Part shown: positions 38,173-63,952 of the stretch, piece by piece
Position numbering within the stretch: position 1 is the stretch's first letter
Layout: every line of letters starts with the position of its first letter
DNA from: an uncultured Planctomycetota bacterium
Lineage (GTDB): Bacteria > Planctomycetota > Planctomycetia > Isosphaerales > Isosphaeraceae
Assembly: GCA_963845755.1 (NCBI GenBank)
Contig: CAWJTV010000049.1
Coordinates: 88,741 to 152,740 of the forward strand
Length of the DNA stretch: 64,000 bases
Direction of reading: 5' to 3'
Notes under the pieces: model-generated
Told to the model about the DNA's origin: nothing
The model's database searches: none
The model's input: the letters and a program-made list of their open reading frames with translations, nothing else
Program-made: the position numbers and the translations under genes

Positions 38173-38193
38173 GCCCCTCGCGCATTGCGCATC

Positions 38194-38232
38194 GGGCGTC
38201 GGGGAAGGCCCACCGGGCCATTCCCCACGCCC
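38194..38232. terminator. GC-rich hairpin downstream of the EF-G gene (possible terminator)
   Basis: gggcgtcggggaaggccc-acc-gggccattccccacgccc, between convergent genes; no strong U-tract. Confidence 0.45.
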
Positions 38233-38471
38233 CACTCTTGTTCAAAAAACGCTTCAGCTCGTGTGGCGCGTGGACGATCCGATCGGCAGGCGCGATCAGG
38301 CCGTCTTCCCTCAGAACAGGTGGAATAACAGGTGGTTTGGAACTTCTGTACACTAAATTCATCGGCAGAGACAAGATAAGCGCTAATATTGAATTGGCAC
38401 TATCTTGGATTTATCAATTTGGACTGTTCCTGAACCGTTCGAGCGTGTTTCGCACTCCACGCTCTTGGTGC

Positions 38472-41190
38472 TCAATCGCCAACGAGCACTGTCTCGTTAA
38501 CCGGCTCTTCGTTCCTTGCGACTCGCTCGGGCGAAGCGTACGCTCGGGCTCTGCGGTCCAGGGTCCAGATTGCTAGCGTACAGGCGATGACGGTCAGCAG
38601 GATCAAGAGCAGGTCCCAGAACGTGGCCCACCAAACGATCTGCGCGATCACGTCCTCGCGAGGAGGATGGTCGATCAGGAGCACGACGATCGCGGGAATA
38701 GAGCTCGCCAGCGCCAAGCCTGGCGGGTAGTTCGGACGAGCCGGCGCGTGAGTTGAATCGTACAAGTAAATGAGGAAAAGGAGCGGCCAGCCCATGGTCA
38801 CGATGAGGAAGATGGCAACGGTCGCGGCGATCGCGCGGCGGCGACGACGGAACCCGATCCCCAGCGCCAGCCCGAGACTGACGACTGCGGCCCCGTGGGC
38901 CAGGACCGTCAGGACCGCGAGGAAGCCGGTGGTCAGGAGACTGGTGCGCGATCGAACCGGCAGGACCGGCCGGGCCGCGATCTCCGCATCCGTGGCCTTT
39001 CGCATCTTCAATTGGCCGCCGGTAGCGTCCGTCGTGATCACATAAGTGATATTCGAAGGATGCAAGGTCTCGATCCTCTCCTCGCTGCCATCAGGCAGTT
39101 TCGTGACCTTCTGAAGGACCCTGACGGGCCGGTGGACCGTAACCAGGGCCAGGCCGATCAGCGCCGGGCCGATCGCCAGCAAGAGGACCAGGCGAAAGGA
39201 CTCCCACCAACGGCTGGCGAATAACCCTCGGTCGGGGACCGCCGCCACAGGTTCCCAGGTCATCGCCTGTGGCATCCCTGTTCGCGTAATCGATAACGGC
39301 GCCATCACCGCGAGGAGAAGGAATCCGACGGCGATCAGGAGCGCGGAGGCCACAGCCCCGAAGTCCATCGCTCGACCGCTGCCAGGGATCCAGATCACGA
39401 TCGTCTCGAAGAGGCATCCGACGCCGATCAAGCCGGCCAGGAGCACCACCACATCGGAGAGCACCGACGTCCGTCGCGGTCGTTCGGGTATGCGACAGAG
39501 GCAACGGTCGAAGGTCCGAATGGTCAGCCAAACCAGGCCGAGGGCCAGCACGAGGCACTCGATGTCCCAGAACATGGTCCACCCGACGAGATACCGTTGT
39601 CCAGGAAAGCGATCCGACAGGAGCTCGGCGGAGCCTCCGGCGACCATGAGGGGACTCAGGCACATCATCCCTGCTCCCCCCAGACGACCGACTCCCGCCA
39701 AGGTCGGCCAGCCGACGCTCATCATCACGGCGAAAACCACGCTCGCGGCGATCGCCCGGCTCTGCTGCTTGATCCAAACCGCCAGGGCCACACCGACGCT
39801 GGCGATCAATGCCCCATGGATGAGGATCGTCGCGACCAGGAGGGTCACGCCGAAGAGCAATTCCACCGTGGACAAGGACGGCTCGGGGGGGAATCGCCCG
39901 GGCTGAGGGACCGGTGGAGTGACATCGGCCGTGGCCATCGCGAGAGCGACCAGGCCCGGCCCGAGTGCCAGAAACGGCACCAGCCGGAGCGTTCCCAGCC
40001 ACTTGCCCACCACGATTGCTCGGGTGGACAGCGTGGTGGTGGCCAGGAGATCGAGGCTGCCCCGCTGCCGCTCTTCCGACATCGATGTCGGCGCCACGGC
40101 CGATAAGATCAGCAGACCGAAGGTCAACTGGATCATGGATCCGAACATTCCCGTAATGAACCCAGGCCGGGATCGAAAGTCGTCCAGGCCGTACGCCCAG
40201 ATCATGACGGCACCGGCGACGCAGGCGATCCCGGTTGAACGCGCCCACGATCGCGATCAAGATCATCAGCCAGCGCGACGGCCGCGACCGATGCCACTCG
40301 CGCCAGAACACGGGATTGCCGTCGAGCGACGGGCCGGGAAGCCATCGCGTGATCCGGCCAATCAGGCCCATGGAAGGCGCCTTACGGCGGTCGCCGGTCC
40401 CACGGCAAGACACCGGCCGCATCCGCCGCACCGCCAGGATCGTCAACACCGCCGACAGCCCCAGCGCCATGGCGAGGAAGCCGAAATACTCCCAGAAACC
40501 CGTCCGGTTGGGCGCCACGTACCGGGCGAACGCCAGGTAGTAGGGGTCAGCCATGAGGCTCCAATCCGAAGGTGGGGCGACCAACCCGAGTCGCGACAGG
40601 CCGAACCAGATCGGCCAGAGGAGCAGGACGAGCATCCAGAAGGTATAGGTCACGATCACGACCTCATGCGGCCTCCTGGCCCAGACCGACAGCGCCATCG
40701 CCATGGTGCAGCCCACCAGGGCGACCGCCAGCATGATCGCGAACGCCAGGGTCAAGGCGGTGGGATCGATGCCGCCCAGCAGCGAACAGATCGACAGGAC
40801 CGGCCAGGTACAGGCCACCAATCCCAGGATCGGCAACAGCCGTGCGCCGAGCCTGCCCAGGACGATCTCCGGGTCCGAGAGGTCGGTGGCCAGGATATGG
40901 GTTAGAGTCCCACGCGCGCGGTCCCCGCAGATCGCTCCGGCTGTCGCCGCCGGCGCGGCCAGCATCACGAGCGTCAGCTCCACCCCGATGATCGCGTAGA
41001 AGTACGACTTGCCCAGTTCCGCATATTGCCGCCACGTGTTCACCGGATCCATTGCCGATCGCGAATTCGCGATCGTCGCGATCGACGACAGCAGAATCAC
41101 CACGCAGAGCGACCGGATGGCGTAAGTCTGCCAGCGTCGCGAGTTGGCCAGGCACTCGTAGACGAAGACCGGTCCCAGGCCCCAGCGCAT
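38472..41190 (-). CDS. ABC-2-type multi-module permease paralog A (frameshift near 40240)
   Basis: MRWGLGPVFVYECLANSRRWQ start and ...ETVLVGD end; two ORFs join into one gene of about 900 aa. Confidence 0.85.
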
Positions 41191-41211
41191 GGCTCTTTCC
41201 CCTTAAAGGTG

Positions 41212-41267
41212 GTTTCAAAAGGGGGACAGGTACCTCGAAGACTCGGAGCCAGTCCCCGTTCTGAAAC
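41212..41267. repeat. Palindromic intergenic element, copy 1
   Basis: gtttcaaaagggggacagg...ccagtccccgttctgaaac; near-identical copy at 46907-46962. Confidence 0.8.
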
Positions 41268-41324
41268 AGCTTGTTACGCAACGAGGCTGCAATCGAACCG
41301 GGATTCCGGGTTCCCCCTCTGTGC

Positions 41325-44050
41325 TCAATCGATCACGAGGACCGTCTCGATCACCGGTTGTCCGCCCTCAACATCTCGTGGGCGTGAAGTATACGCTCGG
41401 GACCTGCGGTCCAGAGTCCAGATCGCCAGCGCGGTGACCACCAGGGCCAGCAGGATGAAGATCACGTCCCAGAACGTACTCCACCAGACAATCTCGGCGA
41501 TCATGTTCTCCGGGTGCGTATCGAAAAGAAGCAGTACGATCGCCGGAACGGGGCTGGCCAGGAACAAGCCTTGAATGTGGGTCGGAGGACTCCAAGAACC
41601 CACGAAATAAGGAAAGAGGAGCGGCCAGCCGACGGTCACGAAGAGGAAGACGCCAACGCTCGCGGCGATCGCGCGGCCGCGCTGCGGAACCCGATCCCCA
41701 ACGCCAGTCCGAGACTGACAACCGCTGCCCCGTGGGTCAGGACCGTGAGGACCGCGAGAAAGGCCGTGGTCAGAAGACTGGCGCGCGAGGGATTCGGCTC
41801 GAACGGCCCGGCCGCGAACTCCGCGTCAGTGGCCTTTCTGACCTGGTCGACGCCGGAAGGGCCGATCGTCCTCACGTAGGTGGTTCCCGAATCGTTGGTC
41901 CAGATCCTCCGCGTGCTCCCATCAGCAAGCGTTGTGACCGTCCATGCGACCCGGACGGGCCTGTGCACCGTAGCCAGGGCCAGGCCGATCAGGGTCGGGC
42001 CGATCGCCAGCAGCAGGGCCAGGCGAAACGACTCCCACCACCGGCCCGCGAACAACCGGCGATCGGGGATCGCTGCGGAAGGTTCCAGGGCCAGGGCCTG
42101 CGGCGTCCTTCTTCGCGAGATCGACAACGGTGCGTTCACCGACAGGAGCAGAAGTCCGACGGCGACCAGAAGCGCGCAGGCCATGATTCCGACGTCCCAT
42201 TTCTCATGCGTGCTCGACCAACCATTGACCCAGATCGCGATCGCCCCGAAGAGACTGCCGACGCCGATCAATGCGGCCAGGAGCACCACGACGTAGGAGA
42301 CCACGGACGCGCGTCGCGGTCGTTCGGGAATCCGGCCGAAGCAGCCATCGAAGGTACGCACCGTCAGCCACAACAGCCCGAGGGACAGCACGAGGCTCTC
42401 GATGTCCCAGAACGACGTCAACCAGAGGATATCTCGGAGCCAGACCCCGCGCCTCGAAAGAAAACGCATGAGGTTCACGCTGGCCACGACCGGACTCAAG
42501 TCCATCATCCCCTCGGCCCCCGGGCCCATACGGCTAACCTCGACCACGAACGGCCAGCCCACGTACAGCGTCACGGCGAGTCCCACGCTGAGGGCGATCG
42601 CCCGGCTCTGCCGCTTGATCCACACGGCCAGCCCAGGCCGATCGTGCTCAATAACATCCCGTGGATCACGACTGTCGCGACCATGAGCGCGGCACCGAAG
42701 AGCCGCTCACTCGTGGACAATTCCATAGTATCGTAGACCGGGATTCCCGGCGATGTCGGCGCGGCCTCGGGCGTCTTGTGTGCCGTGGCCAGAGCCAAGC
42801 CGATCAATCCCGACCCGATCGCCAGCAGCACGACCAGCCGGATCGCCCCCAGCCATTTGCCGGCCACGATCGTGGGGGTGGAAAGGGTCGTCGTGGCCAG
42901 CACGTCGAGGCTGCCCCGCTGCCGCTCTTCCGACATCGACATCGGCGCCACGGCCGATAACATCAGGGACCCGAAGACCAACTGGAGCAGCCATCCGTAG
43001 ATCCCCACGATCGTCCACGCCACCGGAGCCTTGTTGAAGTGATCCAGCCCGTTCGCCCAGATCGAGACGGCCCCGCCGACGCAGGCGATCCCGGTCGCGC
43101 CGCCGCCGATCCCAATCAAGATCATCATCCAGCGCGACGGCCTGGACCGATGCCACTCGCGCCAGAGCACGGGATTGCCGTCGAGCGACGGGCCCGGCAG
43201 CCAGCGCGTGATCCGGCCAATCAGCCCCATCCGCGGCGTCTCGCTCTTCTCGGCCAGCCCGCGACAGGAAACCGGCCGAGTTTTCCAGACCGCCAGCACA
43301 GTCAACAAGGCCGAAGCACCCAGCGCCACGCCGAAGAAGGCGAGGTAAGCCCAGAAGTCGAGCTTACCGGGGACCGCGTAGGGGGCGAACGCCACGTAGT
43401 ACGGATTGGCCAGAAGGGTCCACTGGGGCGGCCGACCGATCTTGCCGGACAACGAGACGCCCGACCAGATCGGCCAGAAGAGCAGGCCCAGGATGAACAC
43501 CAGATAGGTTGTCAGGATCACCTCAAGCGGCTTCCGGGCCCAGACCAATAGCGCCAGGGACATGGAGCAGCCGACCACGGCGACGGCCAGGATCGTTGCG
43601 AACGCCAGGGTCAGCGCCGTGGGGTCGATGCCCCCGAGTAGCGCGCAGATCGCCAGGACCGGCCAGCTACAGGCGATGAGTCCCAGGATGGGCAACAATC
43701 GCGCCCCCAGCTTGCCCAGCACGATCTCGGCGTCGGACAAATCCGTGGCCAGCATGTGGGTCAAGGTGCCGCGCAGCGCGGTCGACACAGATGGCGCCGG
43801 CGGTCGCTGCCGGCGCGGCCAGCAGTATAAGGGTCAGCTCGACCCCGATGATCGCGTAGAAGTACGACTCGCCCAGCGCGGCATAATTTCGCCATATATT
43901 CACAGGATCGACCGCCGTCCGCGACATCGCGATCGTTGCGATCGCCGCCAGTAGGACGGACACCCCGACCGACCGGATGGCGTAAGTCTGCCATCGCCGT
44001 GAGTTGGCCAGGCACTCGTAGAGAAAGACTGGTCCCACTCCCCATCGCAT
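41325..44050 (-). CDS. ABC-2-type multi-module permease paralog B (frameshifts near 43780, 42630, 41680)
   Basis: MRWGVGPVFLYEC start, shared motifs across four ORF pieces, ...ETVLVID end. Confidence 0.82.
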
Positions 44051-44157
44051 GGCAGGTTCCTCGAGTTCGCGTCTACACGTGGTGTGAGTGTCGGTCGAAT
44101 TCGCGAGCGCCGGAAATCGGACATTCGGGAACGGAAGCCTTCGTGCAGTCGGTCCGC

Positions 44158-46885
44158 TCAGTCGCCGACGAGGACGGTCTTGACCGCGGCTGGTTCCTCC
44201 GCAGCGTCAAGCTTGAGCACGGCAGACGCTCGTAGCCTGCGCTCCCGGGTCCAGATCGCCAGCGCGGAGACCACGACGGCCAGCAGGATCAAGAACACGT
44301 CCCAGAACGTGGCCCACTCGAGAATGACCGGGGTCATGTTGTTCCCGTTGTCTAAGCGAACATCGAGAATGAGCAGGACGATCGCGGGAAGGACGCTGGC
44401 TAATGGCAATCCTCGGCAGTAGGGCAGATGGCTCAGGTAAGGGTAAAGGTTGAGGTAAAGCATCGGCCAGCCCAAGGTCAAGTAGAGGAACAGGCCAACG
44501 CTGGCGGCGATGGCGCGGCGGCGGGTACGGAACACGATCCGCAGCGCCAGGCCGAGACTGACGACCGACGCCCCCTGGGCCAGGATCGTCATGACCGCGA
44601 GGAAGGCACTCGTCAAGAGCCTGGCGCGCGAGCGATGCGGCAGGACCGGCCGCGCCGCGATTTCCGCGTCGGTGGCGGGCCGCGTCCTCGCGGGTCCGGA
44701 CACGGGCCTCGTGATCACGAGGGTGGTGCCGTCAAAGACATCCGTGGTGATCTCCTCCTGGCTACCGTCTGGAAGCGTCGTGACCTTCGGCACGACCCTG
44801 ACGGGCCGGTAAGCCGTAGCTACGGCCAAGCCGATCAGCGCCGGGCCGATCGCCAGCAGCGGGACCAGTCGAAAGCACTCCCACCATTGTCCCGCGAACG
44901 ACCTCCGGTCGCCGGTCGCCGTCGAAGGTTCCAGGGCCGCCGCCCTCAGCATCCCCGGCGTCGAGATGGACGCCGGCGCTTCACCGCCAGGAGGAGGAGT
45001 GCGATGGCGATCAGCAGCGCGACAGCCCAGTGCACCGAACTCCAACCCACGATTCAATCCCACCAGGCCATTGATCCAGAGTTCGATTGATCCGAAGAGT
45101 CCGCCGACTCCGATCAATCCCGCCAGGAGCACCACGATGTCGGAGAGCACCGAGGGGCGTCGCCGCCGTTCGGGAATCCGGCCGAAACAGCCGTCGAAAG
45201 TACGTACACTCAGCCACAAGAGTCCGACGGCCAGCGTGAGGCACTCGATGTCCCAGAACCCGATCCACCAGAAGAGACGCCGTTCCGGACCGAACTGCGA
45301 CGACAATTCCTGGGCCAGCACTCCACCGGCAACGACGGGACTCAGGAACATCATCCCCTCGCTCGCCGGCCCCAGACGACTGGCCCCGACGAAGATCGGC
45401 CAGCCGGCGCTCACCATCACGGCGAAGGCGACGCTCGCGGCGATCGCCCGGCTCTGCCGCCTGATCCAGATGGCCAGGGCCAGGCCGACGCTGGCGATCA
45501 ACGCACCGTGGACCAGGATCGTCGCGACCAGGAGGGTCACGCCGAAGAGAAGCTCGCCCCGATGCATCTCCTGGAACGTGCCGGCGGACAGTCCCAGCCG
45601 AGACTGCGCCGCGGGTGACCGGTAGGCCGTGGCCAGTGCGAGAGCCACCAGGCCCGGCCCGAGTGCCAGCAACGGCACCAGCCGGAGCGTTCCCAGCCAT
45701 TTGCCGACCACGATCGCACGGGTCGAAAGCGTGGTCGTGGCGAGCAGGTCGAGGCTGCCCCGCTGACGCTCTTCCGACATCGACGTCGGCGCCACGGCCG
45801 ATAACATCATCAGCCCGAAGATCAACTGGACGAAGCAGCCGAAGATCCCGATACCGAACCCCGCCGCATTCCGAAACTCATCCAGCCCGTCCGCCCAGAG
45901 CAGGACGGCGCCAACGACGCAAGCGATACCGCTCGACCCGCCGACGACCCCGATCAGAATCAGCAGCCAGCGCGACGGCCGGGATCGATGCCACTCGCGC
46001 CAGAGCACGGGATTGCCGTCGAGCGACGGGCCAGGCAGCCAGCGCAGGACCCGGCCGATCACGCCGAACGAAGGCGCCCTGCGATGGCCGTCGGCCCCGC
46101 GATTGGCCACGGGCCGCATCCGCCAGACCGCCAGGACCGTCAATCCACCGGCAGCCGCCAGCGCCACGGCAAAGAAACCGAAATAATCCCAGAAACGCAT
46201 CTGGTTGGGCACCACGTACGGGGCGAACGCCAGGTAGTAAGGGTTGGCGACAAGACTCCACTGGGACGGTGAAGCGACCAGCCTCGCCCACGACAGGACA
46301 TACCAGATCGGCCAGACGAGCAGGACGAGCATCCAGAAGGTATAGGTCACCAGCACGACCTCGTGCGGCTTCCTGGCCCAGACCGACAGCGCCAGGGCCA
46401 TGGTGCAGCCGAGTAAGGCCACGGCCAGGATGATCGCGAACGCCAGGGTCAAGGCCGTGGGATCGATGCCCCCCAGCAGCGAACAGATCGACAGGACCGG
46501 CCAAGTGCACGCGATCAGTCCCAGGATCGGCAGCAGCCGTGCGCCCAACTTGCCCAGTACGATCTCGGCGTCCGAGAGGTCGGTGGCCAGAATATGGGTC
46601 AGGGTCCCCCGCGCGGTCCACGCAGATGGCCCCGGCCGTCGCCGCCGGGGCGGCGAGCAACACCAGGGTCAGCTCCACGCCGATGATCGCATAGAAGTAC
46701 GACTCGCCCAGTGCCGCATAGCTCCGCCATGCGTTCGCCGGATCGATCGACGTCCGTGAATTCGCGATCGTCGCGATCGCCGCGAGCAGGATGGCCACGC
46801 CGACCGACCGGAGGGTGTAGGTCTGCCAGCGTCGCGAGTTGGCCAGGCACTCGTAGACGAAGACCGGTCCCAGGCCAAAGCGCAT
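44158..46885 (-). CDS. ABC-2-type multi-module permease paralog C (frameshift near 46610; compensating pair near 45000)
   Basis: MRFGLGPVFVYEC start, ...KTVLVGD end. Confidence 0.84.
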
Positions 46886-46906
46886 GACTTTTTCCCCTTA
46901 AAGGTG

Positions 46907-46962
46907 GTTTCAGAAGGGGGACAGGCACCTCGAAGACTCGGAGCCAGTCCCCGTTTTGAAAC
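46907..46962. repeat. Palindromic intergenic element, copy 2
   Basis: gtttcagaagggggacagg...ccagtccccgttttgaaac. Confidence 0.8.
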
Positions 46963-47019
46963 AGCGTGTTACGCAGCGAACCTGCAATCGAACTGGGATT
47001 CCGGGTTCCCCCTCTGTAC

Positions 47020-49724
47020 TCAATCGATCACGAGGACCGTCTCGATCACCGGTTGTCCGCCCTCCGCATGTCGTGGGCGTGAAGAATACGCTCGGGACCT
47101 GCGGTTCAGAGTCCAGATCGCCAGTGTCGAGGCCGCGACAGCCAGCGTGATAAAGACCATGTCCCAGGACGCGGTCCACCAGACACTCTCCGCGATCACG
47201 TCCACGGGGTAACTTTCGCCGGGAAGAAGCTCGACGAGCGCAGGAACGGGGCTGGCCAGAAACAGATGGAAGGCCCTTGGAAAACCCGCGGAGACGAGGA
47301 GCGGCCAGCCCACGGTCACGAAGAGGAAGAAGCCGACGCTCGCGGCGATCGCGCGGCTGCGGCGACGGAATCCGATCCCCAGCGCCAGCCCCAGACTGAC
47401 GACCGCGGCTCCGTGGGCCAGGACGGTCAGAACCGCGAGGAAGGCGGTGGTCAGAAGGCTGGTGCGCGATCGAACCGGCTCGAGGGGCCGCGCCGCGATC
47501 TCCGCGTCGGTGGCCTCCCGCACGCTCGCGGACCCGGACGGGGGCCTCGTGATCACGAGGGTGATGCCGTCCATGGGATCCGTGGCGATCTCCTGCTGGC
47601 TACCGTCAGCCAGGGTCGTGACCTTCGGCACGACCGTGACGGATCGGTAGGCCGTAGTCACGGCCAGGCCGAGCAATGTCGGGCCAATGGCGAGCAGCAG
47701 GACCAGCCGAAACGACTCCCACCACCGGCGGGCAAACAACCTCGCGTCGAGGATCGCGGTCGAAGGTTCCCGGCCCAGGGACTGCGGCGATCCTGCCGTC
47801 GAGATCGACAACGGCGCCCTCGCCGCGAGGAGGAGAAGTCCGACAGCGACCAGGAGCGAGCACCCCAGGACCCCGTAGGTCAGCCCGGGATTGACGCGCA
47901 CCAGGCTGGTGAACCCGATGGCGATCCAGCCGTAGAGGCCGCCCACGCCGACCAATGCGGCCAGGAGCACCACGACGTCGGCGAGTACCGACGCGCGTCG
48001 CGGTCGTTCGGGAATCCGGCCGAAACAGCCGTCGAAAGTACGCACAGTGAGCCACAACAATCCGACCGCCAAGACGAGGCACTCGATGTCCCAGAATGCC
48101 ATCCACCAGAAGCGACGCCATTCTGGACCGAACCGCGACCACGGCGTATTGATGAGGGCTCCCGCGGTCACGACGGGACTCAGCAACATCATCCCCTCGC
48201 TCGCCGGCCCCAGACGACTGGCCCGGACGAAGATTGGCCAGCCGACGCTCACCATCACGGCGAATGCGACGCTCGCGGCGATCGCCCGGCTCTGTCGCTT
48301 CATCCAGACGGCCAGGGCCACGCCGACGCTGGCGATCAACGCACCGTGGACGAGGATCGTCGCGACCTGGAGGGTCGCGCCGAAGAGCAGCTCGCCTCGA
48401 AAAACGACCTGCCTCATGCCGACGGGCCGTTGCATCGGGGCCTGCGCCCTGGGTCTCGGGGAGGCCGTGGCCAACGTGAGAGCCACCAGGCCCGGCCCGA
48501 GGGTCATCAACGGCACCAGGCGGAGCGTTCCCAGCCATTTGCCGACCACGATCGCACGGGTCGAAAGCGTGGTCGTGGCGAGCAGGTCGAGGCTGCCCCG
48601 CTGACGCTCTTCCGACATCGACGTCGGCGCCACCGCCGATAACATCAGCAGTCCGAAGATCAACTGGATGATGCTTCCGAAAATCCCCATACCGAACCCC
48701 ACCACCGTCCAATACTGGTCCAGCTCGTCCGTCCAGAGCAAGACGGCGCCGACGACGCAGGCAATCCCGCTCGACCCGCCGACGATCCCAATCAAGGCGA
48801 TCAGCCAGCGCGAGGGCCGCGACCGATGCCACTCGCGCCACAGCACGGGATTGCGGTCGAGCGACGGGCCGGGAAGCCGGCGCGTGATCCGGCCGATCAC
48901 GCCGAAAGAAGGCGCCCTGCGATGGATGTCGGTCCCGCGATTGGCCACGGGCCGCATCCGCCACATCGCCAGAACCGTCAATCCACCGGCAGCCGCCAGC
49001 GCCACGGCAAAGAAACCGAAATAGTCCCAGAAACGCATCTGGTTCGGCGCCACGTACGGGGCGAACGCCAGGTAGTACGGGTTGGCGACAAGACTCCACG
49101 GGGACGGTGGAGCGACCAGCCTCGCCCACGACAGGACATACCAGATCGGCCAGACGAGCAGGACGAGCATCCAGAAGGTATAGGTCACCAGCACAACCTC
49201 GTGTGGCTTCCTGGCCCAGACCGACAGCGCCAGGGCCATCGAGCAGCCCAGCAAGGCGACCGCCAGGATGATCGCGAACGCCAGGGCCAAGGCGGTGGGG
49301 TCGATACCCCCCAGCAGGGAGCCGATCAAAAGCACCGGCCCGGTGCAGGCGATCAGCCCCACGATCGGCAACAGCCGCGCGGCCAACTTGGCCAGGACGA
49401 TCTCGGCGTCGGAGAGGTCGGTGGCCAGCATGTGGGTCAGGGTCCCCCGCCCCGGTCCACGCAGATGGCCCCGGCCGTCGCCGCCGGGGCGGCTAGCAAC
49501 ACCAGGGTCAGCTCCACGCCGATGATCGCGTAAAAGTACGACTCGCCCAGTGCGGCATACGCCCGCCAGTCGTTCACCGCATTGATCGCCCGGCGCGAGT
49601 TCGCGGTCGTCGCGATGGCTGTCAGCAGGATGAGCACGCCAAGCGACCGGATGGCATAAGTCTGCCATCGTCGCGAGCTGGCCACACATTCGTAGAGGAA
49701 AACCGGACCCAGACCCCATCGCAT
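47020..49724 (-). CDS. ABC-2-type multi-module permease paralog D (frameshift near 49450)
   Basis: MRWGLGPVFLYEC start, ...ETVLVID end. Confidence 0.85.
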
Positions 49725-49757
49725 GGCTGATTCCTCGAGTTCAGGTCTCCGCTCAGG

Positions 49758-52596
49758 TTACCTCGGGGCTGCACCGGCTGAGGCCGGCTCCGACCCCAGC
49801 CACCCATCTTCTTGCCCTGCCTTGCTGACGGCGTGGCGAGAGTCGGTGGACCCGAGGGCCGACTGTTCCAGCAGAGCCACCGCCGGTCGTTCGGATTCAA
49901 CGTCCCGCCCGGATGAACGATACGCTCGCGACCTGCGGCCTAGGACCCCGATCGCCAGCGCAGCGAACGCGGCCGCCATCAGGAGGAAGAACGTGTCCCA
50001 GAACGCCGCCCACCCAATCAGCTCCGCGATCATCGAGTCGGAACGCATGTTGACCAGGAGCAGCACGATCGTGGGGACGGGGCTGGCCATCGCCAGGGCT
50101 CGAGGGTAAGTGAACTGAACCTGGGGATCCGGAGGGTACAAGCGAAAGACGTGAAAAAGCGGCCAGACGACGGTCACGACAAGGAACAGGCCGACGCTCG
50201 CAGCGACCGCCCAGCCTCGGCGACGGAAGCCGATCCCCATCGCCAGGCCGAAGCTGACGACCATCGCTCCGTGGGCCAGGACCGTGAGGACCGCGAGCAA
50301 GACGGCCGATGAGCGTTTGGCGAGCGAGGGACCGTGGTCAACCGGACGGGCGGCGATCGCCTCCTGGGTGGCGACCCGCATGCTCGTGGAGCCGGTCTTG
50401 GGATGTATGATCACCAACGTAATGCCCCAAGGACTTGTGCTAATATGCTCCTCGGATCCGTCAGGAAGTGTCGTGACCTTCGGCACGACCCTGAAGGGCT
50501 GGGGAACGATCACGAGGGCCAGGCCCAGGACGCGCCGGGCCGATGGCCAGCAGCAGGACCAGGCGAAACGACTCCCACCAACGACCCAGGAACAACCTCC
50601 GATCGGGGATCGCGGGCGAGGGATCCAGACTCATTGCGTGCGTCGTCCTTACCGGCGCGATCGACCGGGGCACCCGGATCGCCAGGAGAAGGAGTCCGAC
50701 GGCGATCGCCAGCGCGGCGGCCAGAACCCCGAGGTCCAACCCTTCGTTCCTGCGCAACAAGCGGGAGATCCCAATGTCGAACGCCCCGAAGAGGCCGCCG
50801 ACTCCGATCAAGCCGGCCAGGAGCACGATGACGTCGGCGAGCACCGATGCGCGGCGGGGTCGATCGGGGACTCGGCCGAAGCAGCCGTCGAACGTCCGAA
50901 CCGTCAGCCACAATAACCCCAGCGACAGCGCGAGGCACTCGATGTCCCAGAATGAGGTCGCCCAGAGGAGATCCCGGAGCATGGGACGTCGGATCAAGAG
51001 GCAATCCATGAAGAGCTCGCCGGCCATGACCGGACTCAGGCTCACGAGCGGACCTCCGCCCCGACCCACGTGGCCGAACTCGATCAACATCGGCCAACCC
51101 CCGTGCAGCAGCCCGGCGAGTCCCACGCTTACGGCGATCGCGCGGCTCGGCCGCTTGATCCAGACCCCCAGCGCCAGGCCGATCGTGCTGAGCAGCATCC
51201 CGTGCACCACGATCGTCGTGAACAGAAGAAAACCCCCGTAGAGCAGCTCACCCCGGCTTGGCTGAGCGAATTCGTACCACGTTTCCCACGGCAGACGAGT
51301 TACGACCCGGGGCGTCCGGTAGGCCGTGGCCATCGCGAGTCCCAGTAGCCCGGGCCCGATCGCCAGCAAGAGGACCAGCCGGAGCAACCCCAGCCACTTG
51401 CCGATCACGATCGTGCGAGTGGACAGCGTCGTGGTCGCCAGCAGATCGAGGCTGCCGCGCTGCCGCTCCTCGGCCATCGACATCGGTGCCGCGGCCGATA
51501 TCATCAGGAATCCCAGGATCAACTGGAGGAAGAAGGCAAAGATCCCCGCGATCGTCCACGGTGTCGGAGCCCTCCGGAAGGAGTCCAGGCCATTCCTCCA
51601 CATCGAGACGGCGCCGCCGGCGCAGGCGATCCCGGTCGTCCCGCCGACGATCGCGATCAAGATCAACACCCATCGCGACGGCCGGACCCGATGCCACTCG
51701 CGCCAGAGCACGGGATTGCCGTCCAGCGACGGGCCGGGGAGCCAGCGCGTGACCCGCCCGACCAGGCCAAGCCCGGGCTCCCATCGACGATCGACACTCC
51801 CCCGATTGGCGACGCGTCGCATCCGCCAGATCGCCAGGGCCGTCAACAGGGCGGAGAGGGTCAGCGACGCGGCGAAGAAACCGACATAATCCCAGTAACC
51901 CACCCCGACCCCGTTCGGCTCGGCGTACGGGGCGATCACCAGGTAATACGGGTCGGCCACCAGGCTCCAGTCGGGCGGCGACGCGACCAGCCCTCGACGC
52001 GCCATCGCGCCCCAGATCAGCCAGAAGAACGGGCCCAGCATCCAGAAGGTATACGTCACCAGCACGACCTCGTGCGGCTTTCGCGCCCAGACGGAAAGCG
52101 CCATCGCCATCGTGCAGCCCAGGAGGGCCACGGCCAGGATGACCGCGAACGCGAGCGTCAGGGCCTTCGGATCGATGCCGCCTAAGAGCGAGCTGATCGC
52201 CAGCACCGGCCAGGTGCAGGCGACCATCCCCAGGATCGGCAGCAGCCGCGCGGCCAGCTTGCCCAGCACGATCTCCGGGTCAGATAAGTCGGTGGCCAGC
52301 ATGTGGGTGAGCGTACCGCGAGCGCGGTCGACGCAGATGGCGCCGGCGGTCGCCGCCGGGGCGGCCAGCAGGACGACGGTCAGCTCGACGCTGACGATCG
52401 CGTAATAATAGGACTCGCCGAGCTCGGCGTAGCCTTGCCAGGAACTCGCCGCGAACGGCGACGCATGTGACGTCGCGATGGTTGTCATCGCCGCCAGTAC
52501 GATGGCCACGCCGAGCGATCGGATCGCGTAGATCTGCCATCGCCGCGAGTTGGCCAGGCACTCGTAGACGAAGACCGGTCCCAATCCCCATCGCAT
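49758..52596 (-). CDS. ABC-2-type multi-module permease paralog E (frameshift near 50530)
   Basis: MRWGLGPVFVYEC start; C-terminal part lies in ORF 49758-50513; divergent, extended tail. Confidence 0.84.
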
Positions 52597-52675
52597 CACG
52601 CTTCCCCCTCACGAGGCGAATTCGCGGCCCAATCGGCACTCCGGATCCTCGAATCCGGAATCCGCCCCGGTCCGC

Positions 52676-55339: not shown

Positions 55340-55390
55340 CACAATCTCTCCTCACGAGGTCAGGCGGTTCCCGCGTCACGCTCGCACGGC

Positions 55391-58151
55391 TCAATCGCCG
55401 ATCAGCGCCGCTTCGACGGCCGTTGGTGTTTCCTCGGAACCGCTCTCAGGAGTCGCCTGGCCCTTCGACAGGCCGACGAGTCGCCGCTGCCATGCACGGA
55501 TCGTGAACCACAACATCCCGATGCTCAGGACGATGACAAACCCGTTCCAGACCGCCCCCCAGTGGCTCAGGGTCAGGTTGTCGTCCGTGATGCGCGTGGC
55601 GAGCACGGCGAGTAGCGAATCCGCGACCATGACGAACCCCCAGATCATGAAGATCGGCGCGTTGGACGCATTGCTCATGAACAGGTACAGCGGTACCCCG
55701 AGCGTCAGGAACACCGCCAGGCCGAGCGTGAGAGAGCGCGAGCCGGGGTCGCTCGATCGCGGTCGCGACGGCCAGGCCGAGGCTGACCGTCGCGGCCCCG
55801 TGCGCCAGGATGGTCGCGATCAGCAAGGCCACGTCGATCAGCCGATCGCCCAGGTGCACCGCTCCGATACGCTTGCTGCTGTCATCGGCCTCGACATACG
55901 TTATGGTCGGGGCGCCGGCAGCGGCGGTCGTGGCCTGCTGGACCATTCGGGGCTTCTCACGAGCCGTGGCCCAGGCGATGGAAAGGAGAGCCGGGCCGAT
56001 CGCCAGGAGCAAGACCAGACGAAACGCGTCCCACCACCTCCGCAGGATCAGTCCGCGTGGGTTGATCGTTGTGTCGGCCTCGAGCCATCGATCCGGCCCG
56101 GCAGGCCAGTGACCGGCCTCGCCGTCGGCAAGACCCTCCCGCGCAGGACCATGCGATTCTCCTCGAAGCGTGGCGGCGCACCGATGCATTCGCCATGCCG
56201 AGAGCGATGTCGCGGACAGGGTGCCCACCAGGATCAGGCCAACCGCGAGCAGGATGGAATACCCCAGGATCTCGATGGCCGAGGCGGCACGAAGCTCCTC
56301 CGAGAACATGCCCTCGCCGATCCCGATGGCCCAGGCGGCGATGGCCCAGACGAGCGAGCCGGCGCCGATCGACGCGGCCACGATCATGACCACCATGGCC
56401 TGGACCGGGAATCGCCACGGGCGATCGGAAATGCGATCGAAACAACCATCGATCGTCCGGACGGTCAGCCACAGCAGTCCCATCGCGAGGACCCAGACCT
56501 CGACGACCCAGTAGGTGCCCCACCAGAGGACGTCCCCGGCGATTCCAGCCCGATGGACCGTGAAAACATTGATCAAGGTCGTACACAGCACGACGGGGCT
56601 GAGGGTGGCCAGACCCATACCACGAAGGCCGTTCGCCATGGACACCATCATTGCGAAGAACGGCCACGCCATGAGGATCATCACAAACAGGCCGACGCTG
56701 ATGGCGATCGCCCGGCTCTGCCGCTTGATCCACACGGCCAGCGCCAGGCCGATGCTGGTGATCAAGGCACCGTGGCCGATGATCGTCGCCACCAGCACGA
56801 AGACGCCATAGATCCGGCTTCCGAGGCCGATCTCCCGGTAGAATTCCGGCGGCATGCCCGGCGAGACAGGGGAGTCGGAATTCGAACGGGCCGTGACCAT
56901 GGCCAGCGCGATCAATCCCGGGGCCAACGCGATCAAGACTCCCAGGCGAAACGTGCCCAGCCACTTGCCGACCACGATCGCCCGCGTCGAAAGTGCCGTC
57001 GCGGCCAGGATATCCAGGCTGCCCCGCTGCCGCTCCTCCGCCATCGACGTCGGCGCGACGGCGGACAGCATGAGCAGGCCGAAGAGGACATGGAGCACAT
57101 AAGAGATCATCCCCGCCGCGACCCATTCGCTCGCCGGCCCGTCACTCACCCCATCCTTCCAGATCGCGATCGCCCCGGTGATGCACAGGACTCCGGTGGT
57201 ACCCATCAGGCCGGTGAGCAGGATCACGATCCATCGGGAGGGACGCGAGCGATGCCACTCGCGCCAAAGCACGGGACTGTGGTCGAGCGACGGGCCCGGC
57301 AGCCACCGCGCGATCCGGCCCATCAGGCCGATCCGCGGCCCCCTGCTCTTCTCCGCCGTCCCCCGACAGGCAACCGGCCGTGTCTTCCAGACCGCCAGCG
57401 CGGCCAGCAACGCCGAGGCTCCCAGGGTCACACCGAAGAAGCCGAAATAGTCCCAGAACCCCAGCCGGTCCGGGACGGAATAGGGGGCGAACGCGACGTA
57501 GAACGGGTTCGCGAGTTGCGCCCACTCGGGCGGCGCGCTGATTCTCCCGGTGCTCGAGAAGCCCAACCAGATCGGATAGAACAGCATGACCACGATGAAC
57601 AGCGTGTAGGTCGCGATGATCACCTCATGCGACTTCCTCGCCCACACCGAGAGCGCCAGGGCCATCGTGCAGCCGAGCAGGGCGACGGCCACCATGGTCG
57701 CGAACGCCAGGACCAGCGCGACCGGATCAATCCCGCCCAGTAGCGAGCTGATCGCCATCACCGGCCAGGAGCAGGCGACCAGGCCCAGGACCGGCGTCAA
57801 TCGGGCGCCCAGCTTACCCAGGACGATCTCCGAGTCTGACAGATCCGTCATGAGCATATGCGCCAGCGTGCCGCGGGCGCGGTCCACGCAGATCGACCCG
57901 GCCGTCGCCGCCGGCGCGACGAGCATGACCAGGGTCAACTCCACGCCGATCAACGCGTAGAAGTACGCCTGGCCGAGGTACGCATAGTCTCGCTGCAAGT
58001 TCCCCGTCGTCGTCGGTAAGTTCGACAGCGCGATCGACGTCATGGCGAACAAGAGCGCGGCGACGCCCATCGCGCGGAGGGCATAAGTTTGCCACCGTCG
58101 TGAGTTGGCCACGCACTCGTAGAGGAAGACCGGTCCCGGGCCCCAACGCAT
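55391..58151 (-). CDS. ABC-2-type multi-module permease paralog G (frameshift near 55735)
   Basis: MRWGPGPVFLYEC start, ...EAALIGD end. Confidence 0.85.
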
Positions 58152-58164
58152 CACTCTTGCCCCC

Positions 58165-61091
58165 TCAATCGCCGATGAGGACCGCTTCGACGGCCGGTTG
58201 ATTGTCCTCAGCATCCGCCGAAATACGCGATTTCGCCCGGGAAATCTCGCGAGATTGGCGCCGCCACGCGCGGCCGGTCCACCACACGAGCCCGAACGCG
58301 CCGAGCGCCACGACGACGTCCCAGAAGAAGACCGACCAGAGGATGTCCCGGATGATGAACGACTCGCGGCTGGCCAGCGGTTCGAGCAACAACTGCGCGG
58401 CGATGACGAAACCCCAGGCGGCGGACTCCACCATATGACCGCGATTGGCGTTCATCAAAGCAAACGGCAACACGAAAGCCACCAGCAGGATGAAGCCCAG
58501 TCCGACCCCGAGAGCCCGTCTTGACCAGCCCTTGGCGATCGCCAGCGCCAGGCCGATTCCGACCGCCCCGGCTCCATGCACCAGGATGGTGACGATCAAC
58601 AAGACGGCGCCGATCAATCGATGGCCGAAGTGCACCGTCCAGGCAGGCTCGATGAGTTCCTCGGACCGGACATGCGTGACGACCGGGATGCCCGAGGCAT
58701 TGGTCGTGGTCTTGGCGATCGTCCGCGGGCGCTCGGGAGCCGTGGCCAGCGCCATCCCGAGTACGGCGGGGCCGCTCGCCAGCAGCAGGACCAGGCGGAA
58801 TGACTCCCACCACCGGCCCACGAGGAATCGCCAACCGGGGACAGTGAGGGCCTCGTCGAGAGCGTTCAACGGTTGAGTAGCGCACGCCCCGGGGCGATGC
58901 GAATCTACCCCCCCTGACTCCCCCTTCGTAAGGGGGGGACAAGAAAGGGGCCGGTCCGCCTCAAATTGTCCCCCCCTTACGAAGGGGGGATCAGGGGGGG
59001 TTCTTCGGGAGAGGACTTTGAGCGTGTGCAACACAAGTGTTAGGCGCCCTGGTATGTAGGGTGGGTGAAACCCACTAACGTCGGGCGCTTCTTCTCGGTG
59101 GGTTTCACCCATCCTCCAGAACGGTCGGACCCTTTCCAGGGCTCGCCGCGCGGCCCGTCGAGATCGACCGCTCCGACACCACAACGATCAGCACCAATCC
59201 AACCGCGAGAAAGAGGCAATAGGGCCGGACTCCCGCGGTTACCGGCCAGGTAACCGGGCCTCCCTCGATCCAGACACCGATGGCCCCGACGAGCGAGGCG
59301 GCGCCGATCATCCCGGCCAGGATCATGACCACCCTGGCGAGGACCGGGATTCGCGACGGTCGATCCGGGAAGGCGACCGAAACTCCGATCGAACGTCCGG
59401 ACCGTCAGCCACAACAGCCCCATCGCGAGCGTCGCGACCTCGACGGCCCAGAACGTGTTGCACCAGAGAATCTCGCGGCCCCACCCGGTCATCCGATTCG
59501 CGAAGAGACTCAGGAATCCGGCGCACGCCACAACGGAGCTGAGGGAAGCGAGGTCTCGGCCGAGCTTCGCACCGTCGTCGATGGCGATCGAGACGTAGAT
59601 CGGCCAGGCGGCGACGACCAGGACGAACAGGGCGACGCTAATGGCGATCGCCCGGCCCTGCCGCTTGATCCACACCGCCAGCGCCAGGCCGATACTGGTG
59701 ATCAGCGCGCCGTGGGCCAGGACCGTCGCGATCAGGCAGAGGACACCGCAGAGCCGAACCCCGAGCGTGATCTCCAGGTCGGGATCCGGCGTAGTCCCGG
59801 GCAGGTATGTTGACGTCTCCTCCGACCGGGCCGTGGCCATGGCCAGGGCGATCAAGCCCGGTGCGGCGGACAGGGGGACCGCCAGGCGAAACGTCCCCAA
59901 CCACTTGCCGACCACGATCGCCCGGGTGGAAAGCGTGGTCGCGGCCAGGACATCCAGGCTGCCGCGCTGTCGCTCCTCGGCCATCGACGTCGGCGCGATC
60001 GTCGACAACAGCAACAAGCCGAAGACCACGTGGAGGAAATAGGAGGTGATGCCCGCCGTCTCCCAGTAGGCTCCCGGGTGATCATCCAACCCGTTTCGCC
60101 ACATTGCGACGGCCCCGACGATGCAGAGGGCCCCGGTTGTCCCCATGAGGAGGGCGAGGAGCGCCGTCATCCATCGGGAAGGCCGCGACCGATGCCACTC
60201 TCGCCAGAGCACGGGATTGCGATCGAGCGACGGACCGGGAAGCGACCGCACGATCCGCCCGACCAGTCCAACCCGCCCTCGCTGATTCTCGACCGACCCG
60301 CGACAGGCGACCGGCCGCGTCCGCCAGACCGCGAGACCGGCGAATCCGGCCGAAGCTCCCAGCACCACGCCGAAGAAGACGAGATAGTCCCAGAAATCGA
60401 GCTTGCCCGGGAAGATATAGGGGGCGAACGCCACGTAGAACGGGTTGGCCAGGAGTGTCCATGACGGAGGTGGGACAACCAGCCCGCCGACCGACAAGGG
60501 ATACCAGATCGGCCAGATGAGCATCACCAGGATGAAGACGGTGTAAGTCGCCAGGATCACTTCGTGTGTCTTGCTGGCCCAGACGGAGAGCGCCAGGGCC
60601 ATCGTGCAGCCGAGCACGGCCACCGCGAGGATGATCGCGAACGCCAGCGTCAGAGCGACCGGGTCGATCCCGCCCAGTAGCGAGCTGATCGCCATCACCG
60701 GCCAGGAGCAGGCGACCAGGCCGAAGACCGGCAAGAGTCGCGCCGCCAGCTTGCCCAGCACGATCTCCGGGTCGGAGAGATCGGTCATGAGCATGTGCGC
60801 CAGCGTGCCGCGGGCGCGGTCCACGCAGATCGACCCGGCCGTCGCCGCGGGTGCCGCGAGCGCCACCAGCGCGAGCTGCACGCCGATCATGGCAAAGAAG
60901 TAGTTTCGACCGAGGTTCGCGTACTCTCCGTAGGTCCGGTACGAGTTCTGCGTCGCGTATCGCGAGGAAGCGATCGTCCCCATGGCGAACAGGAGCGCGG
61001 CAACGCCCGCCGCGCGGAGGGCATACGTCTGCCAACGTCGCGAGTTGGTCAGGCACTCGTAGAGGAAGACCGGTCCCAGGCCCCAGCGCAT
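58165..61091 (-). CDS. ABC-2-type multi-module permease paralog H (frameshifts near 59370 and 59150; carries palindromic insertions)
   Basis: MRWGLGPVFLYEC start, ...EAVLIGD end; extra sequence at about 58870-59150. Confidence 0.78.
58907..59001. repeat. Long inverted repeat (36-bp arms, 2 mismatches), MITE/REP-like, inside paralog H
   Basis: accccccctgactcccccttcgtaagggggggacaa ... ttgtcccccccttacgaaggggggatcagggggggt. Confidence 0.9.
59056..59117. repeat. GTAG-type REP doublet inside paralog H
   Basis: gtagggtgggtgaaacccact ... ggtgggtttcacccatcctcc; same family as 21628-21688. Confidence 0.8.
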
Positions 61092-61366
61092 GTCGGATCT
61101 CCGAAGCGAGCTCGCCCTTCCGGTGCGGAGGACGTCTCAAGCCTACCATCCACGACAATTGTACGCGAGTGGGTGGTGGCGGGTTCGACCGAGGCCGCTG
61201 GCAAGGCGGCCCGGAACGATTCACGCCGGTTCCCTCGCGCCGTGGAATTCGAGACCAGTCAGCTTGACGTCCCTGGACGGCCTGTGAGTCAATAGGGGGA
61301 TCGGCGGGTCGTGCAGACCCGCGGAGATCGTTCACGCAAGGGATCCGGCAGTTGATCGGAGGGACC

Positions 61367-62071
61367 ATGTCCACCATCGCACCGACACAACCACCGAGGA
61401 CGCCCGATCTGCTGGCATCATCCCTGTCATTTCTTCCCATCCCGGCCGGCCACCGTACGGTATTTCGGGGAGTGAGCCGAGAGGTCTACGAATCCCTGTC
61501 CGAGGCGATCAGTGAGGGTGGACACGTCCGCCTAGCCTATGATGGGAAGGACCTGGAGATCATGGTCATCAGCAACCTTCAGGAGTATCTGAAGGAACTG
61601 CTCGGCAAGTTCGTGGCCGCGGTGATCACATGGCGGAATATCGCGTGCCTGAGTTGCGGTGAGACGACCTGGCAATCGCCGCAGCGGGGGCTCGAGGCCG
61701 ATCATTCGTATTATTTCGATCGCGAGAAGATCCGGATGGCCCAGGAGGCCCTGGCCCGGAATTCGAAGGATCCGGCCGACTATCCCAAGCCCGACCTGGC
61801 GATCGAGATCGACGTATCCGGGCCCCAGATCGATCGCCCTGCCATCTATGCCGACCTCCGGGTCGCCGAGGTCTGGCGATTGGGCCGCAAGGGCCTGGTC
61901 ATCGAGCATCTCCAGCCGGACGGGTCTTATGCCCCGGTCGAGGCGAGTCGGTTCCTGGGAATTCGGGCCGAGGTGATCCTGGAGTGGCTCACCGCCGATG
62001 ACCGGTTCGACGAACCGGCCTGGAACCGCCGGTTGAATGAGTGGGCGATGGGATTGGGTCCACACCCATGA
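61367..62071 (+). CDS. Uma2 (DUF820) family protein
   Basis: RLAYDGKDLEIM, GLEADHSYY, PDLAIEIDVS, YADLRVAEVWR. Confidence 0.88.
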   Translation: MSTIAPTQPPRTPDLLASSLSFLPIPAGHRTVFRGVSREVYESLSEAISEGGHVRLAYDGKDLEIMVISNLQEYLKELLGKFVAAVITWRNIACLSCGETTWQSPQRGLEADHSYYFDREKIRMAQEALARNSKDPADYPKPDLAIEIDVSGPQIDRPAIYADLRVAEVWRLGRKGLVIEHLQPDGSYAPVEASRFLGIRAEVILEWLTADDRFDEPAWNRRLNEWAMGLGPHP

Positions 62072-62191
62072 GCGAGGCTGCGACGGGCACTAAGAATCGG
62101 CGGACCGGCCCCGTGGGTCCTCGCCGTCGCGGTGACGATCGCCACGTTCATGCCGATGATCGATAGGAGCATCGCCGACGTCCCTCCCGTC

Positions 62192-63952
62192 TCATTTACC
62201 GACGAGGATCGTCTCCTGCACCGGCGGCTTTCTCGCGGGACGCCTCACGAGCGGGGCACCGTGTTCGGGCATGCGACCGAGGCAGCGTTCGAAGGTTCGG
62301 ACGGTCAGCCACAGAAACCCCAGGGCCACGACGAGGGTACACACATCCCAGATCGTCGCCCACCACAAGAAGTCACGGGTTGAGTCACCGGGCCTGGAGA
62401 GGCTCGCGACGATCCCGAAGACGGTTACAATTGGGCTCAGTGCGGCGATGGCCTCGCCGAATCGACCGGAACCGAGGACCATCATCGGACATCCGATCGA
62501 AACGAGCGCGAACAGCGTCACGCTGATGGCGATGGCTCGGGACTGCCGGCGAATCCAGGTCGCGAGGATCAGGCCGAGGCTGACGATCGCCGCGCCGTGA
62601 ACGAGGATCGTGGCGAAGAGCAGGGCACAGGCATAAAGCCGCTCACCACCACGGAGTCGGTAGATGAACGGATTTTCCTTGTTCAAAGTGGGGCTCAGCG
62701 CCAGGGCCAGGGCCATCACCCCCGGACCAATCGCTAGCCAGGGGACCAGGTGAAAGGCGCTTAACCATTTTCCCCGGAGGATGGTCCACGACGACAGCGG
62801 AGTCGTCATCAGCACATCCAGGCTGCCGCTCTGCCGCTCCTCGGACAATGTCATCGGGGCCACGGCCGATAATACCAGGAGACCGAACGGGACGTAGAGC
62901 AAGTAAGGGTACGCTTCGGCTTCGAGAGAACGATACCATCGGAATTCGCCCCCCTCGTTCCAAAGGATGTACGCCTTCAAGACGCACGCCATCGTCGTCG
63001 AACCGAGGAGCAGCGCGAGCAATAAGGACATCCGAGGCGACCGCGTCCGATGCCATTCGCGCCAGAGGACCGGGTTGCGGTCGAGCGACGGGCCGGGCAG
63101 CCGTCGAACCATGCGACCGACCAGGCTCAGTTGTGGGGTGGTCTCCTGGCGGCCCTGGCTGCGGACCGCGACGGGCCGCGTCCTCCAGACGGCCAGCCAG
63201 GTCAGAACCAGCGAACAGCCGAGCGTTGCGGCGAGGAAAAGGGCGTACTCCTCCTGCCAGGCGATCGCGCTGAGAGTCCCGTACGGTAAGAAGGCCACGT
63301 AGAAGGGGTTGGCCAACAGCAGGAACTGGGATGAAGGCGTCGGTAGCCACGACATGCCGACCCCTTCCCAGAAGGGATACGCGAGCAGCATGGCCGCCCA
63401 GAAGGCATACACCGCCAGGACCACCTCGTACGGCTTCCGCGCCGAGATCGACAGCGCCAGGGCCATCGTGCAGCCGAGCAGCGCGACGGCCAGGATGACC
63501 CCGAACGCCAGGATCAACGCGATCGGGTCGATGCCGCCCAGCGACGTGCTGATGGCCAGCACCGGCCAGGAACAGGCCACCAGGCCCAGTACCGGCATCA
63601 ACCGCGCGGCCAGCTTGCCCAGGACGATCTCGGAATCCGACAGGTCGGTCGCCAGGACATGCTCGAGCGTGCCGCGCGCCCGATCCACGCAGATCGCCCC
63701 CGCCGTCGCCGCCGGCGCGACCAGCATCACCAGGGCCAGCTCCATGCCGATCATCGGGTAGAAGTACGACTCGCCGAGGTCGGCATACTCCTTCACCGAC
63801 CTCCCTTCCCACAGTGCGTCCTGGGATGCCGCGATCGTGCCCATCGCGACCAGCAAGGCCGCCACGCCGAACGCTCGGATCGCGTAGGTCTGCCGGCGCC
63901 GGGAGTTGGTCAAGCACTCGTAGATGAAGACCGGTCCCAGGCCCCAGCGCAT
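62192..63952 (-). CDS. ABC-2-type permease paralog I (short two-module form, intact)
   Basis: 586 aa, MRWGLGPVFIYEC ... ETILVGK; lacks the third module present in the other copies. Confidence 0.88.
   Translation of the reverse strand: MRWGLGPVFIYECLTNSRRRQTYAIRAFGVAALLVAMGTIAASQDALWEGRSVKEYADLGESYFYPMIGMELALVMLVAPAATAGAICVDRARGTLEHVLATDLSDSEIVLGKLAARLMPVLGLVACSWPVLAISTSLGGIDPIALILAFGVILAVALLGCTMALALSISARKPYEVVLAVYAFWAAMLLAYPFWEGVGMSWLPTPSSQFLLLANPFYVAFLPYGTLSAIAWQEEYALFLAATLGCSLVLTWLAVWRTRPVAVRSQGRQETTPQLSLVGRMVRRLPGPSLDRNPVLWREWHRTRSPRMSLLLALLLGSTTMACVLKAYILWNEGGEFRWYRSLEAEAYPYLLYVPFGLLVLSAVAPMTLSEERQSGSLDVLMTTPLSSWTILRGKWLSAFHLVPWLAIGPGVMALALALSPTLNKENPFIYRLRGGERLYACALLFATILVHGAAIVSLGLILATWIRRQSRAIAISVTLFALVSIGCPMMVLGSGRFGEAIAALSPIVTVFGIVASLSRPGDSTRDFLWWATIWDVCTLVVALGFLWLTVRTFERCLGRMPEHGAPLVRRPARKPPVQETILVGK

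Follow-up and report, generated by a model that had tools for sequence, protein, structure and literature searches.

A tandem array of fused type V ABC permeases in an Isosphaeraceae genome that likely shares an ATPase unit encoded at another locus

The array and its genes

The 64,000-nucleotide stretch of DNA analyzed here (the window) comes from contig C49 of an uncultured Planctomycetota bacterium of the family Isosphaeraceae (source genome G000, 14.3 Mb, 88% complete), and its end is the end of that contig. At positions 38472-63952, it carries a tandem array of nine genes, A to I, every one on the minus strand, that encode ABC-2 (type V) permeases. ATP-binding cassette (ABC) transporters combine two membrane domains with two ATPase domains. 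The initial annotation of this sequence had described nine co-oriented genes of about 890-950 amino acids (aa), with I at 586 aa; number, orientation, and the length of I are borne out, and H, at 974 aa, exceeds the range. The array and the features bearing on it are listed below, with read-through lengths and, for genes on the minus strand, the start at the higher coordinate; G001 is a comparison genome of the same genus.

38472-41190, minus strand: copy A, an ABC-2 permease of about 905 aa with three modules; a single frameshift near 40236, its extra base absent from short-read contigs of X1 and X4
41325-44050, minus strand: copy B, three-module permease of about 908 aa; two of its three frameshifts absent from short-read contigs; mosaic, mostly matching G001 copy 1
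44158-46885, minus strand: copy C, three-module permease of about 908 aa; one of its three frameshifts absent from a short-read contig; D is its closest copy
46886-47019, minus strand: spacer between D and C; over 120 bp, it is 93% identical to the spacer between B and A (41191-41324)
47020-49724, minus strand: copy D, three-module permease of about 901 aa; codon 92 holds its single frameshift
49758-52596, minus strand: copy E, three-module permease of about 945 aa with a single frameshift; the ortholog in G001 is copy 5
52676-55339, minus strand: copy F, intact, 887 aa, 18 predicted membrane helices; modules at about 1-270, 285-575, and 576-870
55391-58151, minus strand: copy G, three-module permease of about 919 aa; its single frameshift, near 55729, is absent from a short-read contig of X1; the ortholog in G001 is copy 8
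58165-61091, minus strand: copy H, three-module permease of about 974 aa with two frameshifts; the ortholog in G001 is copy 9
61352-62071, plus strand: Uma2-family gene (Pfam) that breaks up the array and is placed alike in G001; G000 has 68 such matches in all
62192-63952, minus strand: copy I, intact two-module permease, 586 aa; without ortholog in G001; sister to copy K on contig C33
12808-15585, plus strand: copy J, three-module permease of 925 aa, intact and lying downstream of metH
35260-38356, plus strand: hisF and EF-G2 genes, which flank the array locus convergently, a conserved arrangement
8021-11779, plus strand: metH, fragmented in this assembly; in relatives, it flanks the locus on the other side

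The spacers measure 13-134 bp, except for the 1100 bp around the Uma2 gene, which is, as initially reported, the sole interruption and probably a passenger. All nine copies contain PAATAG, LPGPxLD, WREW, and EERQxGSLD, and ANP(Y/F)Y, previously taken to be common to all, is found in seven of the nine, with ADPYY in A and E. A Pfam-type scan, the check that had been proposed, matched all nine to ABC2_membrane families (whole proteins or the largest piece served as input for eight copies, and B was matched by profile only). Because the copies are 46-75% identical in protein and the best long match between them in DNA is 91% over 1.1 kb, the array is no product of assembly duplication. The likeness of the D-C and B-A spacers marks a block duplication. 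Both spacers contain a short sequence, probably a repetitive extragenic palindrome (REP)-like repeat, for which blast gives about 80 matches in the source genome.

Three membrane modules per chain

Copies A-H and J each comprise three membrane modules, and I comprises two; the unusual size of these permeases is thus due to three ABC-2 modules per chain. In the structural model of F, 18 membrane helices form three modules, of which modules 1 and 2 align as a pair onto both membrane domains of Pdr5, ABCA1, and Rv1217c. Hallmarks of the type V fold are re-entrant helices, a coupling helix, and a connecting helix, and a fused two-domain permease with a separate ATPase dimer is among the cases reported (PMC11406275). 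The domains of F have six helices, are short, and are folded without domain swapping, as type V domains are. Connecting and coupling helices lie in the model at residues 7-19 and 95-101 of module 1 and at 293-301 and 378-384 of module 2, and a re-entrant helix-turn-helix is predicted before the last membrane helix of each module (209-214/216-225, 509-515/519-532, and 799-802/807-820). Modules 1 and 2 are accordingly predicted to form a complete two-domain type V channel.

Module 3 is a duplicate of module 2. Among 108 homologs (of 120 hits listed, the shorter ones being left out), the coupling motif is present in 107 for module 1, in 106 for module 2, and in 2 for module 3, where a short helix, 655-658, remains in the F model. 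The coupling helices of modules 1 and 2 are 86% identical among the paralogs, compared to 29% for the coupling region of module 3. For seven ortholog pairs, the ratio of nonsynonymous to synonymous substitution rates (dN/dS; simple counting method, regions set by hand) rises from 0.08 for the two coupling helices (modules 1 and 2) to 0.35 for membrane helices, 0.58 for periplasmic loops (confidence interval 0.51-0.67), and 0.74 for the module 3 loop. Helices 3 and 4 of module 3 stay at 0.24-0.26, and being still constrained, they indicate that this module is kept as a fold. The loops thus vary more than the helices, as had been anticipated, and they are relaxed, without positive selection.

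Most copies (A-D and F-J) end in a conserved C-terminal tail, for example ETALIGD or ETVLVGD (ETILVGK in the two-module I), preceded by an unconserved stretch; a loose pattern for it matches 33 of the 108 homologs, and it is possibly a binding or turnover signal.

Extent and history of the array

In G001, ten copies lie between EF-G2/hisF and a block consisting of a GDSL lipase, DUF7133, and T2SSE genes, with the Uma2 gene equally placed. In the source genome, the same block begins contig C33, following a two-module copy, K, and a multicopy insertion sequence. Given this synteny and the position of K, contigs C49 and C33 probably adjoin, and the array probably has ten members, such that the suspected continuation past the window's edge would amount to one more copy. 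The element at the start of C33 (C33:1-1270) is of a multicopy Rhodopirellula type (ISAZ013), with at least six further near-identical copies. Just past the G001 array (L036:2354-15530) lie T2SSE, three T2SSF paralogs, and four tandem DUF1559 genes.

The two genomes share one-to-one orthologs of F, G, H, K, and J and nearly so of B and E; A, C, D, and I lack such one-to-one counterparts. Several copies are mosaics, and A-E turn over and recombine between the two species. The named homologs are mostly labeled Isosphaeraceae or Planctomycetota. Among 69 related loci, some of which may share genomes and whose carriers are kin rather than independent, 12 sit at EF-G2/hisF, with one copy (8 loci), two, three, four, or five copies each, and 10 of these 12 adjoin metH too. 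Copy J, confirmed as the tenth copy in the window that had been noted at 12808, stands beside metH, and the array stands beside EF-G2; this arrangement fits an inversion in this genus, by which J was likely split from the array.

The family occurs in 62 of the 86 genomes of the Isosphaeraceae family examined, with 0-16 matches each and 16 in both G000 and G001. Besides its 16 array-family genes, the source genome encodes 7 more distant two-module permeases, and no adjacent ATPase was found at the 6 of these 7 that were checked. Arrays of the permease family form repeatedly and at different loci: separate tandem arrays hold five two-module copies at L166 (G223 C17:797.9-806 kb) and four at L040 (G005 C7). 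In another planctomycete family, tandem large ABC-2 permeases at L150:5444-11408 (G057) include a 904-aa frame with 16 predicted helices, perhaps an independent three-module form.

Frameshifts as assembly errors or decay

Only F, I, and J are unbroken open reading frames; A-E, G, and H together hold 12 frameshifts of one or two bases. On one account, most of the array is redundant, made up of duplicates that accumulate and decay in very large genomes, with one or two copies still working. The scaling of copy number with genome size (rho 0.77 across the 86 genomes, which are kin and so not independent) is in line with this, as is the turnover of A-E, and the frameshift rate in the array, 0.49 per kb (12 in 24.7 kb), is about twice that of the background (16 in 71.6 kb, likely an underestimate; Poisson p 0.011, or 0.054 without a compensating pair). 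The short-read matches listed, moreover, bear on 5 of the 12 frameshifts. These five (at 40238, 42632, 43775, 45022, and 55729) are, however, absent from short-read contigs of soil metagenomes from two studies, which span 13-25 of the 30 bins of 38400-58300, many pieces being at least 99% identical. No in-frame stop occurs in any of the 43 copies examined, and no frameshift is shared with the G001 ortholog. Across related copies, there are 0 shifts in 29 from short-read or isolate-type assemblies vs 56 in 53 others, assembly type being assigned from contig names, and the one-to-one orthologs F, G, H, K, and J have whole-gene dN/dS values of 0.32-0.43. Decay on this scale hence appears distinctly unlikely, and the frameshifts are mostly assembly errors, among which the doubled rate would allow for a few real breaks.

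Genes elsewhere in the window are broken as well: metH and an RNase PH gene are fragmented, and the mlaE, glycosyltransferase, and carbamoyltransferase genes are also in pieces, which fits assembly-wide indel errors (coordinates listed for fragmented genes: 8021-11779, 2480-4157, 15596-16342, and 18216-19908).

The missing motor and an orphan ATPase

The whole 152.7-kb contig C49 yielded no ABC ATPase in a search with a profile of 18 of the genome's own ATPases (no filter, E<=10), and none was found within 100 kb of the G001 array. The initial annotation had reported neither an ATPase nor a binding protein in the window; the former statement holds, and the latter has to be amended for an MlaD-type periplasmic protein (16426-17544), which is unrelated to the array. 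An ordinary ABC operon in relatives, which had been named as a finding that would overturn the idea, is not what the 69 related loci present: one has an ABC ATPase within 10 kb, and that one comes with its own permease.

The absence of a neighboring motor, together with the loss of the coupling motif from module 3 and the two loops that reach a dN/dS of 1.14-1.16 against the pooled dS, could be taken to mean that the proteins need no ATPase and serve as sensors, as scaffolds, or as diversified surface proteins that meet phages or predators, a role that had also been considered at first. We regard this as very improbable: no part of the proteins is more constrained than the coupling helices of modules 1 and 2, the pooled dN/dS of the loops remains below 1, and these loops are short and, if the fold is type V, would face the periplasm rather than the cell surface. 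Besides, an unpartnered ATPase of the right class exists in the genome.

Of about 87 ABC frames in the source genome, 31 ATPase loci come nearest to the type V class, and the neighbors of these 31 were checked. The ATPase at C34:426.3-427.3 kb has no multi-helix neighbor and follows an accessory protein of about 800 aa, with which it forms a two-gene unit (423.9-427.3 kb). The accessory combines a signal or anchor helix, beta domains, a glutamine-amidotransferase-like domain, and a membrane hairpin; this may parallel GldG, which has a glutamine-amidotransferase-like periplasmic domain. Profile matches of the accessory (DUF4350, DUF7408, GATase1_like) are all sub-threshold; its fold matches STM1381/STM3548 (E 3e-7), and a neighboring Atlas cluster contains DUF7408 in 10% of its members. 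In the ATPase ortholog, the Walker A, signature, Walker B, and H-switch motifs are intact, and the ATPase is 88-93% identical in two other genera, where the neighbor medians are 56 and 66%.

A C34-type ATPase is found as a single match in 84 of the 86 family genomes. All 20 C34-type loci analyzed have the accessory, and none has a two-module permease. In other planctomycete classes, by contrast, the nearest relatives of the array permeases directly follow a C34-type ATPase at six of eight loci, with the accessory upstream at five. Since the operon is kept there, the orphan state suggests an old, family-wide break-up of an accessory-ATPase-permease operon. At L054:8230-9384 (G021), an RRXRR/HNH gene is inserted between accessory and ATPase. 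Upstream of the unit at L056, L057, L059, and L064 (four genomes, different families), a TPR/peptidase MA protein is encoded, possibly a further component.

The motor could alternatively be a paralogous unit on contig C20 (accessory, ATPase, and its own two-module permease), or both units could serve the array. The C20 ATPase is intact in the source genome and 75-99% identical across most family genomes, its permease has the P-x6-LLGG motif too (see below), and the C34 ATPase is frameshifted in the assemblies of both G000 and G001. Yet the C20 unit has an adjacent permease of its own, the coupling helix and tree position of which are unlike those of the array, and its accessory hairpin is unlike that of C34, so that we rate this possibility as unlikely. 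That the array has a shared motor, whether C34 or its C20 paralog, is quite probable, and the C34 ATPase dimer with its accessory is the likely candidate, a reading that carries forward the original proposal of a lineage-level expanded repertoire sharing an ATPase encoded elsewhere.

Predicted docking of the accessory

The pair of permease and accessory was modeled with residues 1-575 of F and residues 385-760 of a relative of the C34 accessory. The complex scored 0.62 against 0.00 for the best control, at a predicted local distance difference test (pLDDT) value of 71 for the partner, and the runs agreed in at least 84% of contacts; the score mark is reached by 116 of 157 solved pairs and by 2 of 215 mismatched pairs. 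This model supports accessory-permease binding. The closest contacts join F 129-143 and the accessory hairpin, 417-465. W129, P130, L137, L138, G139, G140, I141, and D142 are invariant in the 108 homologs (the W-P-x6-LLGGID motif of module 1), and a P..GG version is kept in the operon-linked permeases across the phylum; modules 2 and 3 have a long variable loop at the matching position. The membrane hairpin of the accessory is therefore predicted to pack on the W-P-x6-LLGGID motif.

A proposed mechanism and its weak points

We propose that the array represents an enlarged repertoire of single-chain type V (ABC-2) channels, which would alternate in their use of one ATPase dimer and one membrane-anchored periplasmic accessory from C34. 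The ATPase would bind the coupling helices and drive whichever channel is bound; the copies may differ, via their loops, in cargo or outer partner; and module 3 could be a motor-less add-on that widens the contact surface in the membrane or periplasm. Lipid-like or other hydrophobic envelope material, exported to the periplasmic domains of the accessory, is conceivable as cargo, a guess that we would doubt somewhat more readily than endorse. In its broadest form, which we offer tentatively and at slightly less than even confidence, this would be a modular envelope-export platform: a universal ATPase and a periplasmic adaptor of an uncharacterized family, a fixed docking motif, and twenty or more exchangeable single-chain channels, with a three-domain form in Isosphaeraceae in which the motor-less domain adds a function such as cargo loading or partner recruitment.

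Several observations weigh against a C34-driven set of channels. In a Foldseek search with the F model, the Pdr5, ABCA1, and Rv1217c families ranked first, none at E<=0.001. Near nucleotide 530-540, the C34 ATPase gene carries a frameshift in G000 (+1), in G001 (-1), and at three more of the 20 loci (+1, -2, and -1), always at a CG run; with mixed signs and the other 15 loci intact, we take this to be an assembly error. The C20 unit is equally conserved, and support for the clade link in the tree is modest. The modeled accessory chain is a relative 84% identical to the source-genome protein, and close cousin accessories can pass the complex test. The tracking of genome size by copy number and the kinship behind the loci counts point in the same direction.

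If the proposal is true, type V exporters would join importers in sharing a motor, and would do so on a large scale, with channels multiplied up to 16-fold, and an unnamed, widespread accessory family of 750-850 aa would gain a role and a predicted docking site; the ATPase-accessory unit would be the part conserved across Planctomycetia, with the channels scattered. As cultured Singulisphaera, Aquisphaera, and Tautonia carry two-module members, the idea is testable. The initial annotation missed the third module without a coupling motif, the old family-wide orphan state, a nameable motor-accessory unit, and the genome-size trend.

Relationship to known systems

Shared ATPases, fused type V permeases, and the three-part GldAFG are already known; what appears to be new is the putative placement of motor and accessory at another locus, the third, apparently uncoupled domain, and the predicted docking motif. 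Rv1217c-Rv1218c of Mycobacterium tuberculosis, a type V exporter (PDB 8K1M-8K1P; PMC11406275), is 13% identical to an array permease. It is a drug exporter and has no third domain. The array, by comparison, consists of many paralogs, lacks an adjacent ATPase, and is predicted to use a membrane-anchored accessory. GldA-GldF-GldG of Flavobacterium resembles the proposed system in combining an ABC-2 permease, an ATPase, and a third membrane protein, although GldF is a single module, unlike the array permeases (PMC9127263). The array permeases score 31.5, 35.9, and 56 bits, short of the GldF equivalog cut-off of 288.5 bits, and no link of the array to gliding was found.

In MceG (PMC9947336) and MsmK (PMC4519317), one ATPase gene serves several permease sets encoded elsewhere, as we infer here. 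Those systems are importers of other folds with a few known partners, in contrast to at least 16 type V candidate clients that would share the motor here. As a gene pattern, one ATPase with many distant permeases is what the 86 genomes contain: one ATPase match in 84 of them vs 0-16 permease matches.

Duplicated orphan permeases (ADOP) have a MacB/FtsX-type fold, unlike the type V permeases of the array. The likeness to ADOP (TIGR03434) lies in many fused orphan paralogs with few ATPases; in an NCBIfam scan, F, J, and I had no TIGR03434 match at E<=0.001. A search of the literature, with subscription papers largely outside it, found no account of the array family, the array, or the accessory, and no description of a stable three-domain permease with a motor-less third copy. 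NosDFY functions in copper-site maturation. Genomic support for such a role was not found at the array, and database names of homologs such as 'multi-copper enzyme maturation permease' are transferred labels. NosY (PDB 7O12, 7QBA) has one module, compared to two or three in the array permeases.

Other features of the window

Directly after copy J, an MlaE permease and an MlaD-OmpA fusion are encoded at 15596-17544 on the plus strand, in the same order as in G001 (L038); MlaF ATPase was not found on contig C49, and a second MlaE paralog lies on C37. An IS66-type transposase occupies 24893-26521 (minus strand), and 26687-33916 (plus strand) encodes a Ser/Thr kinase rich in TPR repeats, along with two unknown proteins and a weak match to an extracytoplasmic function (ECF) sigma factor.

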